Below, piece by piece: positions 2-12,300 of a stretch of 24,000 nucleotides of DNA. The stretch covers positions 25,389-49,388 of the forward strand of contig DAITAZ010000009.1 of assembly GCA_036824045.1 (NCBI GenBank). The letters run 5' to 3'. Source of the DNA: Rhodocyclaceae bacterium (lineage in GTDB: Bacteria > Pseudomonadota > Gammaproteobacteria > Burkholderiales > Rhodocyclaceae). The notes beneath the pieces were generated by a model. That model searched no databases, was not told the origin of the DNA, and saw only the letters and a program-made list of their open reading frames with translations. Position numbers and translations under genes: made by a program. The stretch's first letter is position 1. Each line of letters begins with the position of its first letter.

Positions 2-3000
2 TGCGGCCTGCAGCGGGCTGCCGATGGCGAACCGCGCCTGCTGTTCACCCGCGAAGGCGACGGCACCGTCACCTGGGCTTCCGCCCGGCTGCCGGAACTG
101 GAGGCCGCCCAGGCCTACTGGCTCATGCCCGTGGAACATGCGGATCTGCCGGGCGCGCCGGAGCATTTCGCCGCCCTCCAGGAGCTGCTGGAGACCGGCC
201 GTACCGTCAAACTGGAGCGTCTGCCCGCCAGCCGGGGCAGCGGCGCGGCGGCCGCGCCCTTCACCCTGGAAGCTCCGCCCCCCGTACTGCCCGCCGACGA
301 GGAACTGGCCCGCGCAGCCTTGGGCAGCAGCCCCCGTCGGCGCCGCACCGCCAGCCGCGTGCAGCCCCTCAAGGTGGCCGTCCACGCGGGGGACGTGAAC
401 TTCGTGGATCAACCGGTGCTGTGCGGCCATTCCATCGGCGACCCGATTTCCGGCCCCGAGGCGGCGCTGGACCGCATCCTCGAGGGCGCACTCACCGAGC
501 GGGAACGCCTCGGCCTCTACGCCTCGGAAGTGGGGACGTCGGCCATTGTGCTGCGCCAGCCCAATGAGCTGGAGCGGGCCCGGGGCAGCCTGCGCGGCGC
601 GGTGATCGTCGGTCTGGGCAAATACACCGGCCAGTTGAGCACCCAACAGATCACCGAAACCGTGCGCGGGGGCGTCCTGCGCTACCTGCTGCAGCGGCGC
701 GACACCCTTGGCCTGCCGCCGGATCACCCGGTGCAGCTCTACAGCGTGCTCATCGGCTCGGCCGGCGCGGCCACCGGCATCAGCGTGGCGGAATCGGTGG
801 TGGCCGTCACCCGCGGCGTGCTGCAGGCCAACCAGCAGTTCATGACGGCGCTGGGCAAGGGCGAAGGCCACGGGCAACCGGTGGCCAGCCTCAACTTCAT
901 CGAGATGTTCCGCGACACGGCCATCAGTGCCGCCTACACCGTGCGCGCCCTGGGCAAGACCCTGCAGGACGAGCTCAAGCGCCTGGGCGCCCGCGTCGAT
1001 GCCGCCAGCGAGCTGAGCTTCGGCCCCGGGGTGCGCCATCGCCTGAGCAACAGCGACAACACCGACTATTGGACCCGGCTCATCGTCACCGACCCGGACG
1101 GCGAATCCGGCGCGGCCGACGTCCGCCCCGCCCCGCCCCCCGGATCCGGCGACGCCGTCGATGCCTCCGCGGCTGAACACCGCTACCACCCGCAACGGCT
1201 CAAGTACGTTTTCCTCTCGCCCCGGGCACGGGCCGAGAGCGTGGCCCAGGTGCGCCAGCCAGGGTTGATCGAAACCATCATCCAGGGCCAGCGGAGCAAT
1301 CCCGCCAATAATCCCCGCCTGGGGCAACTGCTGTTCCAGCTCATGGTGCCCCTGGAATTCAAGGCTGCGGCTCGGGAACAGGCCAAGCTGATGCTGGTGC
1401 TGGACCAATACACCGCCAACCTGCCCTGGGAACTGCTGGAAGTGGAAGGCGGCCCCCTGGTGCTGCAAACGCCCATGGTGCGGCAACTGGCCACCCAGCG
1501 TTACCGCGCCCGGGTGAGCAACGCCGGCCGGGAAACCGCCTGCCTCATCGTTTCCCCCAGCACGGTCGGTTTCAACACCCGCTTCCCCACGGGCCCCGCG
1601 CGCCTGGCCCAGTTGCCCAAGGCGGTGGACGAGGGCACGGCGGTGGAGAACACCCTGAGGGAGAACGGCTGGGGCCCGGCGGACATCAAGGTCTGCCCCG
1701 AGGAATCCAGCGCCCTGGACGTACTCACCGCCCTCTACGAACAGCCCTACCGCATCCTGCTCATCGCCGGGCACGGCGTGTTCGAGGCCAAGGCCAAGGA
1801 CGGACGGCGCTACTCCGGCGTGGTGCTCTCCGACGGCCTGCTCCTCACCGCGGTGGAAATCGCCCAGATGGAGGTGGTGCCCGAAGTGGTGCTGCTCAGT
1901 TGCTGCCACCTGGGGAGCGTCAGCACCGACAGCAATCCCGACCGACTGGCCTATAGTCTGGCCCAGGAGTTGATCGAAATGGGCGTGCGCTGCGTGGTGG
2001 CCGCCGCCTGGGCGGTAGACGATGCGGCCGCCTGCACCTTCTCCCGCACCCTGTTCCGGGAACTGGCCGAGGGCGAGAACTTCGGCAAGGCCGTGTTCTG
2101 CGCCCGCCGCGCCACCTATCAGGCGCACCCGGGCTGCAACACCTGGGGGGCCTACCAGGCCTACGGCGATCCCTCCTACCGCCTGCGGCCCCAGGCCGCC
2201 AAGGCCCACGCCAGGCAAAAGCCGGCCTTTGTCGCCGTCGAAGAACTCCTCGCCAGCCTGGAACGCATTGCCCTGCGGCTGCGCACCGCCAACCCGGACG
2301 CGGGCGCCCCCCCGCTGAAGCGGCTGCGTCAGGAACTGCAGCAGGAGCTCGATCGGTGCCCTCCCGAATGGAGCGAATCGCCCGAGGTGCTCCAGGCGCT
2401 GGGCCGCATCTACTCGGAGCTGGGTGAAGACGGCTTCGAGGAAGCCCGGCGCTGCTATCTCACAGCCTTGCAGACCGACGATGCGGGCGGCCGGGTGGCC
2501 GTACGCACCATCGAGCAGCTCGCCAATCTGGAAGTGCGGCTGGCGGAAGCCCTGGCCGCCCGGGGCGAACTCGCCCAGGCGGAAAAGCTGGCGGATTTCG
2601 CCATCGTCCGCCTCCACGGCCTCAAGGCCACCGTGGATGGCGGCGACGCCATCTCCCGCGCCAATACGGAGCGGGCCGTGCTCCTGGGTAGCGCCAACAA
2701 GCACCGGGCGGCCATCAGCGCCTGCAGCCCCGGCGCTGACTGGAATACCGTGTCCAAACTGCTGGGCGAGGCGGCCCTCGCCTATGGCGCCGCAGTTGCC
2801 GGCCCGGCCCAGGCCTCGCCCAACAACACCCTCAACCGCCTGCAACTGGAAGCCCTGGCGACCCCCCCCGCCGACCCGGCAACCGCGATTGCCCTGGCCA
2901 AGGAATGCGGTCAGGAGGCCAACCGGCGCTTTGCCGCCAGCCGCAGCTTCTGGGACGCCGTGGGCGCTGCGGACGCGGTGCTCACCGCCTGGCTGCTGGG

Positions 3001-3286
3001 TGAGGCGCTCGACCGCCCCGCCCATACCCTGCTCAAGCGCTACCAGGATGCCACCGCCAGCGTGCCGGGCTCCGCCCGGCAGTGGAACTCGGTGCTCAAG
3101 CAGTGGCGGCTGCTGGCCGGTTTTCTCCGCCTGCGCGCCCGCAACGGCGACGACACGACGGCGGCGGAACTGGAAAAGCTGATGCGCCTGCACGGGGGCG
3201 GCGAGGAACCCGCCGCCGAAGCGGTGGAACGGGTGGCCCCGGCTGGCGCCAACACTCCACCCCCACGCAAGGGGCGGAAAGGCTGA
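2..3286 (+). CDS. CHAT-domain (caspase-like protease fold) multidomain protein, 5'-truncated by the window edge
   Basis: The reading frame is open from nt 2 with no stop (CGLQRAADGEPRLLFTREGDGTVTWASARLP...YWLMPVEHADLP precedes the first ATG at 125), so the gene continues upstream. CHAT hallmarks are present: YRILLIAGHG (His at nt 1772-1774) and VVLLSCCHLG (Cys-Cys at nt 1901-1906), followed by GVRCVVAAAWAVDD. The middle region (about nt 362-1024), with ...GAVIVGLGKYTGQLS..., resembles the macro-like N-terminal domain of M17 aminopeptidases. The last ~330 aa are alanine/leucine-rich helical repeats (TPR-like) ending in a basic tail PPPRKGRKG. Confidence 0.85.
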   Translation, partial: CGLQRAADGEPRLLFTREGDGTVTWASARLPELEAAQAYWLMPVEHADLPGAPEHFAALQELLETGRTVKLERLPASRGSGAAAAPFTLEAPPPVLPADEELARAALGSSPRRRRTASRVQPLKVAVHAGDVNFVDQPVLCGHSIGDPISGPEAALDRILEGALTERERLGLYASEVGTSAIVLRQPNELERARGSLRGAVIVGLGKYTGQLSTQQITETVRGGVLRYLLQRRDTLGLPPDHPVQLYSVLIGSAGAATGISVAESVVAVTRGVLQANQQFMTALGKGEGHGQPVASLNFIEMFRDTAISAAYTVRALGKTLQDELKRLGARVDAASELSFGPGVRHRLSNSDNTDYWTRLIVTDPDGESGAADVRPAPPPGSGDAVDASAAEHRYHPQRLKYVFLSPRARAESVAQVRQPGLIETIIQGQRSNPANNPRLGQLLFQLMVPLEFKAAAREQAKLMLVLDQYTANLPWELLEVEGGPLVLQTPMVRQLATQRYRARVSNAGRETACLIVSPSTVGFNTRFPTGPARLAQLPKAVDEGTAVENTLRENGWGPADIKVCPEESSALDVLTALYEQPYRILLIAGHGVFEAKAKDGRRYSGVVLSDGLLLTAVEIAQMEVVPEVVLLSCCHLGSVSTDSNPDRLAYSLAQELIEMGVRCVVAAAWAVDDAAACTFSRTLFRELAEGENFGKAVFCARRATYQAHPGCNTWGAYQAYGDPSYRLRPQAAKAHARQKPAFVAVEELLASLERIALRLRTANPDAGAPPLKRLRQELQQELDRCPPEWSESPEVLQALGRIYSELGEDGFEEARRCYLTALQTDDAGGRVAVRTIEQLANLEVRLAEALAARGELAQAEKLADFAIVRLHGLKATVDGGDAISRANTERAVLLGSANKHRAAISACSPGADWNTVSKLLGEAALAYGAAVAGPAQASPNNTLNRLQLEALATPPADPATAIALAKECGQEANRRFAASRSFWDAVGAADAVLTAWLLGEALDRPAHTLLKRYQDATASVPGSARQWNSVLKQWRLLAGFLRLRARNGDDTTAAELEKLMRLHGGGEEPAAEAVERVAPAGANTPPPRKGRKG

Positions 3287-3296
3287 TCGGTCCGAA

Positions 3297-3328
3297 CGCC
3301 CGGGTAACCGCCGGGGGCCACCCGGGCG
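3297..3328 (+). other. GC-rich hairpin just after the CHAT gene stop (9-bp stem cgcccgggt/acccgggcg, 14-nt loop), no U-tract
   Basis: The arms were read directly as perfect reverse complements at 3297-3305 and 3320-3328. There is no T-run downstream, so it may be only a weak or Rho-assisted terminator or an RNA-stabilising structure. Confidence 0.3.
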
Positions 3329-3346
3329 CCGCCGAGCAAGAGGTGT

Positions 3347-3375
3347 TTGACTTTCGCCCCACCAGAAAGTAACTT
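3347..3375 (+). promoter_or_regulatory. sigma70-type promoter candidate for the metX leader (TTGACT-N17-TAACTT)
   Basis: The -35 TTGACT (3347-3352) and -10-like TAACTT (3370-3375) are separated by a 17-nt spacer. The predicted start near 3382 coincides with the 5' end of the putative riboswitch. Confidence 0.45.
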
Positions 3376-3380
3376 CCTCC

Positions 3381-3437
3381 GACAGCGCCGATTTGAATGA
3401 TCAGCTTGCGGGCGCTCAACAAATACGGCTAAAGCGA
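3381..3437 (+). promoter_or_regulatory. candidate SAM-II (metA-type / SAM-alpha) riboswitch aptamer
   Basis: P1 stem AGCGCC (3384-3389) pairs with GGCGCT (3411-3416). The enclosed loop carries GAUUU and GCUU (3404-3407). GCUU can pair with the 3' tail AAAGC (3431-3435, within GCUAAAGC) to form an H-type pseudoknot. This arrangement matches my recollection of the SAM-II consensus. It sits upstream of metX, the classic SAM-II-controlled gene class. Confidence 0.6.
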
Positions 3438-3441
3438 GGGC

Positions 3442-3480
3442 AACCCAGTCCGCGCCAGCGCCGACTGGGTTTTTCGTTTC
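3442..3480 (+). terminator. Rho-independent terminator (expression platform of the metX leader)
   Basis: The stem aacccagtc (3442-3450) / gactgggtt (3463-3471) has a 12-nt loop and is followed by TTTTCGTTTC. It lies 5 nt after the aptamer and ~90 nt before the metX start. Confidence 0.75.
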
Positions 3481-9213: not shown

Positions 9214-9240
9214 AAAAAGGCGCCGCTGGGGCGCCTTTTT
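9214..9240. terminator. bidirectional Rho-independent terminator shared by thrH (+) and the yqjK-like gene (-)
   Basis: AAAAA-GGCGCC-gctgg-GGCGCC-TTTTT: a perfect 6-bp GC stem flanked by an A-run and a T-run. It overlaps the minus-strand stop codon at 9240-9242. Confidence 0.8.
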
Positions 9241-9545
9241 CATTTTGCCCGGAGCAAACCGCGCTCCACCAGCAGCGGCCTCAACCTCAGCCACCCCTGC
9301 CAGGCGAAGAACGTCCGCCGCGCGAGCCGGAATGTCCGTCGCGGCTTCAGCACCAGGATCAGCGTGCCGGCGCCGATCAGCCACTGGGGATTGGCCTTCA
9401 GCCAGCGCACCGAGTGGCTTACCGCATCGGCGGCACCAAGCGCTGGCGCCACCCCCGCTGCGTGCCCGGCCCACCGGGCCCGCAACTGGCCGCTCCGCTC
9501 CAGCAGGCGCTCCCGCTTGAGGGCGAGTGCCTCGGCCTTGCTCAC
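9240..9545 (-). CDS. YqjK-like small membrane protein
   Basis: Trimmed to GTG 9545, which overlaps the stop of the upstream yqjE-like gene (GTGA). The sequence KAEALALKRERLLERSGQLRARW...RLARRTFFAWQGWLRL resembles E. coli YqjK in both sequence pattern and operon position. Confidence 0.65.
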   Translation of the reverse strand: MSKAEALALKRERLLERSGQLRARWAGHAAGVAPALGAADAVSHSVRWLKANPQWLIGAGTLILVLKPRRTFRLARRTFFAWQGWLRLRPLLVERGLLRAK

Positions 9546-9931
9546 ATGTCCCCCGACCGGAGCTTTTCCCGGTCCTTGGCCAGTTCGGCAAGGCTGGCTG
9601 AAAAGAGCGACGAACCGGCTGCCTTGAGGCGCATGGCCAAAGCGAGGAAGACACCCCCCAGCGTCAGGAAGACGGCGGTGAAAATCCCCAAGGCCAGCAG
9701 CCGCTGGCCTTCCCACATCAGCACGGTGAGCAGCACCGCCAGGAATACCAGGCCGAAGACCAGGCACAGCACTGCCGCCACCCCATACACCAGCATGGCC
9801 CCCAGCCGCGCACCCTCGGCCTGGGCCTCGACGGAGAGCAGGGCCAGACGGTTTTGGGCGATGGCCAACGTGGTGGCCAGCAGCCCGCGGGCGTGGCTGA
9901 CCAGCCCTGCCTTGGCGGGAGTCTCTGTCAT
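9542..9931 (-). CDS. YqjE-like / phage-holin-family (DUF1469) inner membrane protein
   Basis: 129 aa with two long hydrophobic helices (LGAMLVYGVAAVLCLVFGLVFLAVLLTVL; LLALGIFTAVFLTLGGVFLALAM). It sits between DUF883 and yqjK-like genes, as in the enterobacterial yqjDEK cluster. Confidence 0.75.
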   Translation of the reverse strand: MTETPAKAGLVSHARGLLATTLAIAQNRLALLSVEAQAEGARLGAMLVYGVAAVLCLVFGLVFLAVLLTVLMWEGQRLLALGIFTAVFLTLGGVFLALAMRLKAAGSSLFSASLAELAKDREKLRSGDM

Positions 9932-9953
9932 GGCGCCCAGCCCTTTCCCGAGC

Positions 9954-10265
9954 CTAACGACGGCCGATCAGCAGGCCGATGATCAGGCCCACGCCCGCGG
10001 CCACGCCCACGGCGCGCCAGGGGTTGTCATGCACGTAGTCATCCGTGGCGCGGGCGGCAGCCTTGCTCTTGTCCACCACGGTGGCTTCCAGATCCGCCAG
10101 ACGGATCTTGGCTGCGCTCAGATGCTCCTGCACCTTGATGCGCATCTCGCCCATCTTGTCGCCCGCCGTGCCAGCGGTCGCCTTGAGCAGTTCTTCCGCA
10201 TCCGCCACCACCTGTTTGAAATCGGAAACCAGCTTTTCCTTGCCCACTTGGCTCATTTCGCTCAT
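9954..10265 (-). CDS. DUF883 family (ElaB/YqjD/YgaM-type) C-tail-anchored membrane protein
   Basis: 103 aa with a helical N-terminal part and the signature C-terminus YVHDNPWRAVGVAAGVGLIIGLLIGRR. Confidence 0.85.
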   Translation of the reverse strand: MSEMSQVGKEKLVSDFKQVVADAEELLKATAGTAGDKMGEMRIKVQEHLSAAKIRLADLEATVVDKSKAAARATDDYVHDNPWRAVGVAAGVGLIIGLLIGRR

Positions 10266-10383
10266 TTGCGTGCTCCTCGCTATCGTTGGATGCAGTGACT
10301 CATCTGAATGATCACGCTACGCCATCCGGGCATGCGCAACCCTGTTTCAAATCAATACAGCTTGTATATGGGGATGGTTCCGC

Positions 10384-11772: not shown

Positions 11773-11976
11773 AGCCCCAACCCGGACAATGTGCAAAACC
11801 CTGTGTCGCCGTCCAGAGGTGTCAACCTGCCACGATGGGCCGGGCGTTATGGCCCTGCGCTCGCCCCAACGCCCGCACCCCATCGGGAACGGGAATGGTT
11901 GGCAAGGGTCTACCGCCAGGTGGCTCCCGCGGGAGCAAGGACGTTTCTCTTACAGGTTTGTACAGGAGGATTTGCC

Positions 11977-12300
11977 ATGACCGAGATCATCCCCCGCACC
12001 CCGGAACCCGATTCCCGCCGGACTGGGGGCGAACTGGACCCAGTGCTGCAGGCTTGGCGGCAGCTCGTCAACGCGGTGGCTGAACTGTTCCGTGGCCGGG
12101 CCAGCCGTGTCCGCCCCTGGGTGGATCAGGCGGAAAAGCAGGTCCACGAATGGAGCCAGGGCATGGGTCAGCAATTGGGCGGCGAGGCCAGCCGCGCCGC
12201 CAACGCCACGCGCCGCTTCGTGCAGGAGCGCCCGGTACAGGCCATGGGCATCGCCGCCGCCGCGGCCCTGCTGCTGGCTGCCCTGGTCCGCCGCAAGTAG
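11977..12300 (+). CDS. second DUF883-like (ElaB/YqjD-type) tail-anchored protein
   Basis: Trimmed to ATG 11977, preceded by ACAGGAGGA. The C-terminus RFVQERPVQAMGIAAAAALLLAALVRRK parallels the DUF883 C-terminal anchor of the gene at 9954-10265. Confidence 0.6.
   Translation: MTEIIPRTPEPDSRRTGGELDPVLQAWRQLVNAVAELFRGRASRVRPWVDQAEKQVHEWSQGMGQQLGGEASRAANATRRFVQERPVQAMGIAAAAALLLAALVRRK

Follow-up and report, generated by a model that had tools for sequence, protein, structure and literature searches.

A 24,000-nt stretch of genome from a Rhodocyclaceae bacterium (GenBank assembly GCA_036824045.1, contig DAITAZ010000009.1; hereafter the window) begins within a giant gene that encodes a multidomain protein with a CHAT caspase-like protease domain. 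Sequence comparison with related genomes indicates that this gene, together with an upstream gene for a C14-family metacaspase, constitutes an accessory cassette inserted upstream of metX. By analogy with characterized systems, the cassette is considered with moderate confidence to be a self-contained module for regulated cell death or for action against invaders, that would operate as a cascade of two proteases.

In type III-E and III-B CRISPR, type IV Thoeris and gasdermin systems, caspase-like proteases have recently been recognized as the enzymes that execute the bacterial immune response, and in every studied case known to us the protease is controlled by an external signalling machine. 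Here a single polypeptide unites a candidate sensor, a putative initiator protease and two lipase-type heads, usually with a metacaspase of its own encoded alongside. Should the defence or suicide reading hold true, the protease cascade would be self-contained and movable as a 7-kb cassette, would give the macro or M17-N fold a new role, and would lend itself, as a simple system, to studies of how caspase cascades are set off in bacteria. The CHAT family itself is already known; what is new is a large family for which no study was found, its unusual all-in-one architecture and the possession of its own metacaspase.

Domain architecture of the giant protein

Positions 2–3286 of the window (+ strand) form one stop-free frame of 1094 codons that ends in a TGA at 3284–3286 and is open at the left window edge, as described in the initial annotation of this DNA. 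The window covers the 3’ 56% of the gene. The full gene was read from three metagenomic contigs, 99.4–99.7% identical to the window, that were found through the MetX protein of the window. The complete gene encodes 1950 aa (L086:282–6134) with both hydrolase nucleophile motifs intact, and the earlier expectation of a larger protein with a further enzymatic head was borne out by two hydrolase heads beyond the window edge. Between the window and the near-identical contigs there are 13–15 synonymous and 0–3 non-synonymous differences, which argues for purifying selection. The antisense strand is likewise stop-free across window positions 2–3400 (– strand, 1132 codons). Given that the GC content at third codon positions is 0.73 in the antisense frame versus 0.87 in the + frame, and that all homology lies in the + frame, the antisense frame was regarded as a high-GC artefact and not as a gene.

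From sequence, the predicted domain order of the full protein is an N-terminal region of ~220 aa, a DUF7379 hydrolase, an LCAT/PGAP1-like hydrolase, a basic linker, a macro-fold domain resembling the N-domain of M17 aminopeptidases, a second linker, CHAT and a TPR-S array. The peptides quoted in the initial annotation were all present, with coordinates a few bases off; the motifs lie at nt 53–70 (EGDGTV), 131–151 (VEHADLP), 611–631 (GLGKYTG), 1757–1777 (LLIAGHG) and 1892–1915 (LLSCCHLG). No hydrophobic stretches resembling transmembrane (TM) segments were found in the full protein and no signal peptide was obvious when the N-terminus was read by eye. The 1950-aa protein is predicted to be cytoplasmic. 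The features of the gene and of its junction with metX, with AlphaFold2 (AF2) model confidence given as pLDDT, are as follows:

2–3286, + strand: C-terminal 1094 codons and stop codon of the 1950-aa multidomain gene (the window starts at codon 857)
2–211, + strand: end of predicted α/β-hydrolase domain 2 (LCAT/PGAP1-like), with Asp20 of the GDGxV motif at nt 59–61 and His46 at nt 137–139
212–361, + strand: low-complexity Ala/Pro linker with the basic cluster SSPRRRRTASR at its end, read from the sequence
362–1033, + strand: macro-fold domain like the N-domain of M17 aminopeptidases, aa 121–344 (~225 aa), assigned from AF2, Foldseek and weak profile matches
1034–1195, + strand: disordered linker that joins the macro-like domain to CHAT, pLDDT <50 in both AF2 models
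1196–2179, + strand: CHAT caspase-like protease domain (Pfam PF12770), with His591 at nt 1772–1774 and Cys634/Cys635 at nt 1901–1906 (Cys635 at 1904–1906)
2237–3196, + strand: TPR-like α-solenoid of the TPR-S type, aa 746–1065 (~320 aa), at least 13 helices, pLDDT >90
3197–3283, + strand: disordered C-terminal tail, pLDDT 40–50
3287–3355, no strand: right-hand junction of the inserted cassette, from an alignment of the metX upstream regions of the window and three Rhodocyclaceae genomes

Membership of the CHAT family was upheld by profile, catalytic dyad and fold. The Pfam CHAT profile matched aa 440–723 with 105.3 bits (cutoff 24, E = 5e-30), and His591-Gly592 and Cys634-Cys635 are invariant in 85 of 85 aligned sequences (the window and 84 homologues), confirming the caspase-fold His/Cys dyad first recognized from the sequence alone. 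The domain is predicted to be a protease with this dyad intact. An AF2 model of aa 366–1094 (pLDDT 84) consists of an α/β caspase-type domain followed by at least 13 helices, and the best match of this model to a solved structure was the activated SAVED-CHAT filament 8tl0 (Foldseek against the PDB, E = 3e-4), followed by the TPR domains of LGN and kinesin light chain (KLC) and by Csx29 (8eey_B). A phmmer search of PDB chains with CHAT and the C-terminus detected nothing. The helices of aa 746–1065 and the matches to TPR domains agree with the TPR-like array previously noticed downstream of CHAT. Pfam TPR-S (PF20308) scored 24.6 bits over aa 812–933 of the window protein, just under the cutoff of 27.6, and 29–53 bits in homologues.

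In homologues, Pfam placed DUF7379 at ~aa 110–310 and a domain of LCAT/PGAP1/Hydrolase_4 type at ~aa 550–740. Among 43 full-length homologues, the serine of the hydrolase 1 motif HSRGG is kept in 40 and that of the hydrolase 2 motif AHSMGG in 37, with the GDGxV aspartate and the histidine of hydrolase 2 (Asp20 and His46 in the window) invariant in all 43. The residues preceding the first ATG, which had been suspected of being the Asp/His end of an α/β-hydrolase, contain precisely these two invariant positions and are assigned as the predicted catalytic Asp/His end of the LCAT/PGAP1-like domain. The Ser-Asp-His triad of hydrolase 2 is complete when Asp20 and His46 are combined with the AHSMGG serine found upstream in L086 (99.4% identical to the window).

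The middle region (aa 115–365) is a conserved module of ~245 aa in essentially all homologues. Its AF2 model (pLDDT 89, predicted template-modelling score (pTM) 0.88) gave 65 Foldseek matches in the PDB at E ≤ 1e-3. The 50 best of these include macroH2A1.1, Af1521, YmdB, TTHA0132, PARP14 macro 1 and M17 leucyl aminopeptidases, with the macro and M17 matches at E ~1e-5 and a target-normalised template-modelling score of 0.6–0.7. The remainder of the 50 comprises de novo designed serine hydrolases and SPX-domain entries, some titled ‘carrier-driven crystallization’, the carriers or scaffolds of which we take to be macro domains. The macro-like or M17-N-like character initially proposed for this region was therefore correct at the level of fold. 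Weak second phmmer matches inside CHAT in two homologues had prompted the idea that the middle domain was a degenerate pseudo-caspase, as in separase and Csx29, and this assignment was dropped when the fold search gave a macro fold.

A macro-superfamily fold is thus present, whereas the macro tests at the level of sequence failed. The Pfam Macro profile matched none of 28 members, even at E ≤ 10. The canonical ADP-ribose-binding motifs of macro domains are NAAN and a GGG loop, and by inspection of alignment A1 the segments at these positions read VGH-x-x-GD-x-I-x-GAE and LLIG-x-NS, so that the canonical motifs are absent. The nearest sequence relative is the M17 N-domain (PF02789), with which the middle domain shares its fold and a V-G-L-G-K strand-loop motif. 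The domain profile gave a single match in the PDB, to the N-domain of the Xanthomonas M17 aminopeptidase 3jru (residues 18–95, E = 0.2), and Pfam Peptidase_M17_N matched 6 of the 28 members weakly (best E = 0.0031). The resemblance is marginal, with E values of 0.2 to 0.003, and the domain is not followed by an M17 catalytic domain as it is in leucyl aminopeptidases.

The C-terminal ends of β2, β4 and β5 carry invariant Gly-rich loops (G28/H29/D33, G90-L91-G92 and L136/G138), and it is at these ends that we presume the macro ligand cleft to be, from general knowledge of macro domains and not from a structural superposition. A ligand pocket may be conserved, with ADP-ribose binding a conjecture; the nucleotide- or ADP-ribose-gated proteolysis envisaged in the initial annotation is pure inference. 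The chances are only a little short of even that the macro-fold domain is no ligand sensor at all and instead has a structural role or serves oligomerisation, as the N-domain does in the M17 hexamer, with activation occurring through TPR-S or proteolysis only. We know of no M17 N-domain that binds a nucleotide ligand, and it is this N-domain, not the ligand-binding macro domains, that is the nearest relative in sequence. The replacement of NAAN/GGG by GH-x-x-GD-x-I-x-GAE in alignment A1 (by inspection) and the lack of conserved signal-producing enzymes nearby would also suit a scaffold, and an assembly role is made plausible by SAVED-CHAT, which is activated through filament formation (10.1101/2023.06.23.546230). 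A sensor is favoured by the invariant loops at the presumed cleft and by one relative located between two TIR-domain genes, given that the Macro domain of type II Thoeris perceives the TIR product His-ADPR, an ADP-ribose (ADPR) derivative (Rousset et al., 10.1101/2024.10.24.620036).

A metacaspase partner within an inserted cassette

Searches with the giant protein gave 94 homologues, mostly of 1750–1915 aa and at best 54% identical, and the closest relative among GTDB representatives is 55% identical. A profile of the macro-like domain, run against 1.84 billion representative proteins, matched 1728 at E ≤ 1e-3 and 977 at E ≤ 1e-30; in the best 150 of those the domain lies at ~850–1080 of proteins of 1750–2100 aa, or in shorter forms and fragments. 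At 50% identity the family resolves into at least 1700 clusters, from several phyla. Database names of homologues are limited to ‘CHAT domain-containing protein’, ‘DUF7379 domain-containing protein’ and ‘hypothetical’. Literature searches found no study of the family, and a query for CHAT, hydrolase and TPR in an anti-phage context returned only reviews of fungal immunity.

Neighbourhoods were compared at 81 related loci (80 GTDB species representatives and Aromatoleum EbN1) with all open reading frames (ORFs) clustered, and only two neighbour families were recurrent, the C14 gene and a GH19-like gene. The C14 gene (~270 aa) immediately precedes the giant gene in the same orientation, often with a spacing of 4 nt. 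It was present in 40 of the 70 loci with enough upstream sequence, in 35 of them adjacent and on the same strand. For the species of the window, the last 72 codons of the C14 gene are seen on the near-identical contigs, ending 62 nt before the giant gene. This 72-aa tail is identical to the Immundisolibacter copy at 56 of 72 positions, and its best match in a separate search was 79%, with no exact match. The partner is recognized by Pfam Peptidase_C14 (E = 5e-25) and by the PADLOC profile ‘caspase’ (E = 1.7e-16), its PDB relatives are GSU0716 (1.4e-30) and metacaspases of yeast, plants and trypanosomes, and it keeps the SGHG and DSCHSG motifs. Every deep clade of a neighbour-joining tree built from the macro-like and CHAT region includes loci with the C14 partner, which is therefore taken to be ancestral and to have been lost repeatedly. 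One locus (L097) carries a split form, with the break near the basic linker, consisting of the C14 protein, a protein with the two hydrolases (929 aa) and a macro-CHAT protein (1117 aa).

The GH19-like gene (~550 aa) was found in 13 of the 81 loci (Thauera, Pseudomonas and Verticiella), where it replaces or accompanies the C14 gene, and the order GH19, C14, giant gene occurs in five loci. Over its first 200 residues the encoded protein shares homology with GH19 endolysins of phages (9eoi, E = 3.5e-42). The protein (L011:5554–7203, L008:4806–6515 and 11 other loci) continues with an SH3-like middle and an uncharacterised C-terminal 250 aa, the Cys/His motifs of which (YCNIYACDY ... SGHIVAVV) resemble a papain-fold amidase, and its N-terminus has no obvious signal peptide by eye. 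Patatin and further TPR-S genes adjoin one locus, and integrases are also among the neighbours. At Zoogloea loci and at loci of uncultured betaproteobacteria, long ‘ORFs’ upstream were rejected as genes (no Pfam matches, or stop-free high-GC artefacts).

Two Paracoccus plasmids (L095:3425–6670 and L092:2396–5680) encode, immediately 5’ of the CHAT gene and in the same orientation, an unannotated protein of ~1090 aa, with a 4-nt overlap or a 38-nt gap; one copy has a weak SBP_bac_3 match and the other no Pfam match. It may be a different partner in the alphaproteobacterial relatives.

In three related Rhodocyclaceae genomes the gene order is gshA-gshB-(apbE)-PTS EIIA-HPr-ptsI-metX-metW-MFS, with ptsI abutting metX and without the giant gene. 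As ptsI lies directly upstream of metX in these genomes, the cassette is interpreted as an insertion. The right junction is placed within 3287–3355, because the sequence shared with the relatives that lack the cassette starts at ~3355. No terminator-like or σ70-like site was found in the interval between the giant gene and metX. The GC content is 68–72% over the giant gene versus ~65% in the rest of the window. Outside this species the nearest MetX proteins are 76–79% identical and come from Rhodocyclaceae and Zoogloeaceae.

The tree of the macro-like and CHAT region conflicts with taxonomy, which points to horizontal transfer. Methylococcales and a Burkholderiales genus cluster together within a clade of Zoogloea and Thauera, Methyloversatilis clusters with a deltaproteobacterium, and Desulfuromonadales with Verrucomicrobiota. 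Nine distant relatives (~30% identity) were located by tblastn on plasmids or chromids. On a 76-kb mobilizable Azotobacter plasmid the relative lies beside hsdS, a gene for a Fic protein and hsdM (type I restriction-modification, R-M), together with a recombinase and three insertion sequence (IS) elements. The relative on Rhizobium leguminosarum pRL31b3 is a protein of 936 aa with macro-like, CHAT and TPR-S domains and without the hydrolase heads. Its gene is followed after 34 nt by that of a muramidase (GH108 and PG_binding_3), with IS110 nearby, and this is the only locus at which a TIR gene adjoins the macro-like-CHAT core. The full order at the pRL31b3 locus (L094, 29016–42906) is TIR-nSTAND1-WD40, a small, oppositely oriented hypothetical gene, macro-like-CHAT-TPR-S, GH108, an unassigned protein of 249 aa and a second TIR-nSTAND1-WD40. 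The locus looks like a compact conflict island.

Proposed cascade and alternative explanations

In logic the cassette most resembles SAVED-CHAT/PCaspase, and in composition the pairing of hydrolase and caspase described by Kaur et al.; the protein is a member of neither of these systems, nor of Csx29 or Borvo. In the type III-B CRISPR-CBASS hybrid of Haliangium ochraceum, an N-terminal sensor switches on the SAVED-CHAT protease, and PCaspase, a second caspase-like protease from the same cluster, is then specifically cleaved and activated (Steens et al., 10.1101/2023.06.23.546230). The cassette likewise has a regulatory domain just N-terminal to CHAT and a co-encoded second protease of the C14 type, and 8tl0 is its closest structure. 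It differs in that a macro fold replaces SAVED, for which no Pfam match was found in the fragment or the full-length protein, in the additional two hydrolase heads and C-terminal TPR-S, and in a similarity to PDB chains that phmmer could not detect. It also differs in its surroundings, as no linked Cas10 or CD-NTase generator is conserved across 80 neighbourhoods, with the sequence of the window’s own species seen only as far as the C14 tail.

In the ternary conflict systems built on vWA, MoxR and VMAP, an α/β-hydrolase is paired with a caspase, and the prediction is that proteolysis sets effectors free (Kaur et al. 2020, PMC7159879). The coupling of a caspase-superfamily peptidase with an α/β-hydrolase is shared; however, here both are fused in one polypeptide, and the neighbourhoods show no conserved vWA, MoxR or VMAP component. 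The EACC1 system was also considered and dropped, EACC1 being a single-TM domain. Csx29, the TPR-CHAT protein of type III-E CRISPR, combines CHAT with a TPR array, and its structure 8eey_B is among the matches above. Its TPR array is N-terminal and its protease is controlled by Cas7-11/crRNA, whereas the array here is C-terminal and no CRISPR genes are linked. Borvo (BovA), a single-gene CHAT system listed in PADLOC, has been proposed to act against phage. It shares the stand-alone character of the CHAT protein, but its profile was matched over only ~140 of 711 positions and the overall architecture is unrelated.

Thoeris provides precedents both for sensing by a Macro domain, in type II, and for activation of a caspase, as in type IV a caspase-like protease is switched on by a TIR-made nucleotide via a C-terminal sensing domain (10.1101/2024.10.24.620036). 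One distant relative of the giant protein is located between two TIR-STAND genes. In contrast, the clade of the window has no linked TIR gene, the macro-like domain lacks the canonical motifs, and the type IV sensor is a different domain at the C-terminus.

With a metacaspase gene lying upstream, a two-protease cascade becomes the likely mechanism. The TPR-S array, possibly together with the macro-like domain, would restrain CHAT until a trigger appears, which could be an invader protein or a small molecule. Active CHAT would then cleave specific sites in the co-encoded metacaspase zymogen, in its own inter-domain linkers, such as the disordered ones on either side of the macro-like domain, or in both; the step from CHAT to metacaspase is proposed by analogy with the activation of PCaspase by SAVED-CHAT. 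This cleavage would release promiscuous Arg/Lys-directed proteolysis. The basic cluster SSPRRRRTASR would suit an Arg/Lys-specific metacaspase, and a basic stretch also precedes the macro-like domain in homologues. From its sequence, the linker is a candidate cleavage site. The two lipase/esterase heads, once set free, would attack membrane lipids, and in the Thauera, Pseudomonas and Rhizobium relatives a neighbouring endolysin-like muramidase would complete lysis. The recurrence of two unrelated muramidase families, GH19 and (in Rhizobium) GH108, suggests lysis as the end point in some lineages. Members of the family are often encountered in wastewater bacteria that form flocs (Zoogloea, Thauera, Dechloromonas and Competibacter), and altruistic death would be expected to matter in clonal aggregates such as wastewater flocs.

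The role of conflict effector proposed in the initial annotation is supported circumstantially, by the insertion at metX, the discordant tree, the plasmid-borne relatives beside R-M and TIR-STAND genes, and the metacaspase. Several observations weigh on the other side. A co-occurrence with NTPases, cyclases or CRISPR loci, suggested in the initial annotation as a check, was not found, the genes conserved beside the family in 80 neighbourhoods including none for an NTPase, a cyclase, a TIR protein or CRISPR. PADLOC matched no system at the locus, and its BovA match was weak and partial (E = 7e-5, 20 bits, profile positions 524–664 of 711). Several of the loci examined stand alone among housekeeping genes, with no known defence gene close by. 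A tblastn search of phage genomes gave no homologues, and literature searches on DUF7379 or TPR-S found nothing relevant. About 40% of loci have no metacaspase, so that the protease cascade cannot be obligatory. The hydrolase nucleophiles and the C14 gene lie outside the window and are known from the near-identical contigs alone, and the CHAT substrates, the trigger and the lipase activity are all inferred.

A bolder and rather doubtful extension is that the core (macro-like-CHAT-TPR-S, with or without lipase heads) represents a new and widespread stand-alone immune or death module, independent of CRISPR, CBASS and Thoeris. A nucleotide-derived alarm sensed by a divergent macro domain, or an invader protein bound by TPR-S, would set off the CHAT-metacaspase cascade and lead to proteolysis, lipolysis and, in some lineages, lysis by an endolysin. 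A TIR product as the nucleotide signal is suggested by the Rhizobium TIR locus.

It is unlikely that the protein is instead a physiological regulatory protease and lipase, responsible for controlled proteolysis and lipid remodelling in stress, aggregation or storage-polymer turnover. HetF, a developmental CHAT protein of cyanobacteria, would be the model for such a role; however, the NCBIfam HetF match is negligible (10.5 bits versus a cutoff of 1200). The loci that stand single among housekeeping genes, the lack of a PADLOC system match and the prevalence of the family in floc-forming wastewater bacteria are consistent with physiology, as are phasin/PhaC genes near the EbN1 copy and glycogen genes adjoining two divergent members (pgi-pgm-glgC-glgA and glgC/glgB; L099 and L100), although this last adjacency may be due to chance or to synteny shared by wastewater bacteria that accumulate glycogen. 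A housekeeping function fits less well with the absence of the gene from the syntenic position in related genomes, with its patchy distribution across phyla and a tree discordant with taxonomy, and with plasmid copies that in some cases lie beside R-M, IS and TIR-STAND genes. The pairing with a metacaspase and an endolysin-like protein also suits killing better. Combinations of lipase-type enzymes and peptidoglycan hydrolases, such as that formed with the GH19 and GH108 partners at some loci, recall antibacterial effector sets, but it is very improbable that the lipase heads and muramidase are exported as inter-bacterial toxins of the type VI secretion system (Tle/Tse type) with CHAT as processing protease, given the lack of TM-like stretches and of a signal peptide obvious by eye, the lack of conserved VgrG, PAAR, Hcp, Rhs or immunity-like genes in 80 neighbourhoods, and a C-terminal TPR-S and metacaspase partner that are features of intracellular sensing systems.

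Further features of the metX region

The metX leader, at window positions 3375–3449 (+ strand), contains a segment resembling a SAM-II riboswitch (Rfam SAM_alpha, RF00521) with 31.4 bits against a gathering score of 36 (E = 1.6e-5), and this element was missed by the default scan at the gathering threshold. The segment is near-invariant in the metX leaders of the three other Rhodocyclaceae and is followed by a conserved GGGTTTTT run at ~nt 3467–3474. Three independent metagenome assemblies with an identical metW (L082, L083 and L084; window ~4357 onward) end inside metX, ~350 nt upstream of metW. These shared assembly breaks may reflect strain heterogeneity near the insertion.

Further downstream, a trio of YqjK, holin-X-like (PF07332) and DUF883 genes occupies window positions 9240–10298 (– strand), with a second DUF883_C protein encoded at 11791–12300 (+ strand). 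The trio is kept in two of the three related genomes (L089 and L090) and is therefore regarded as core context and not as a phage remnant.

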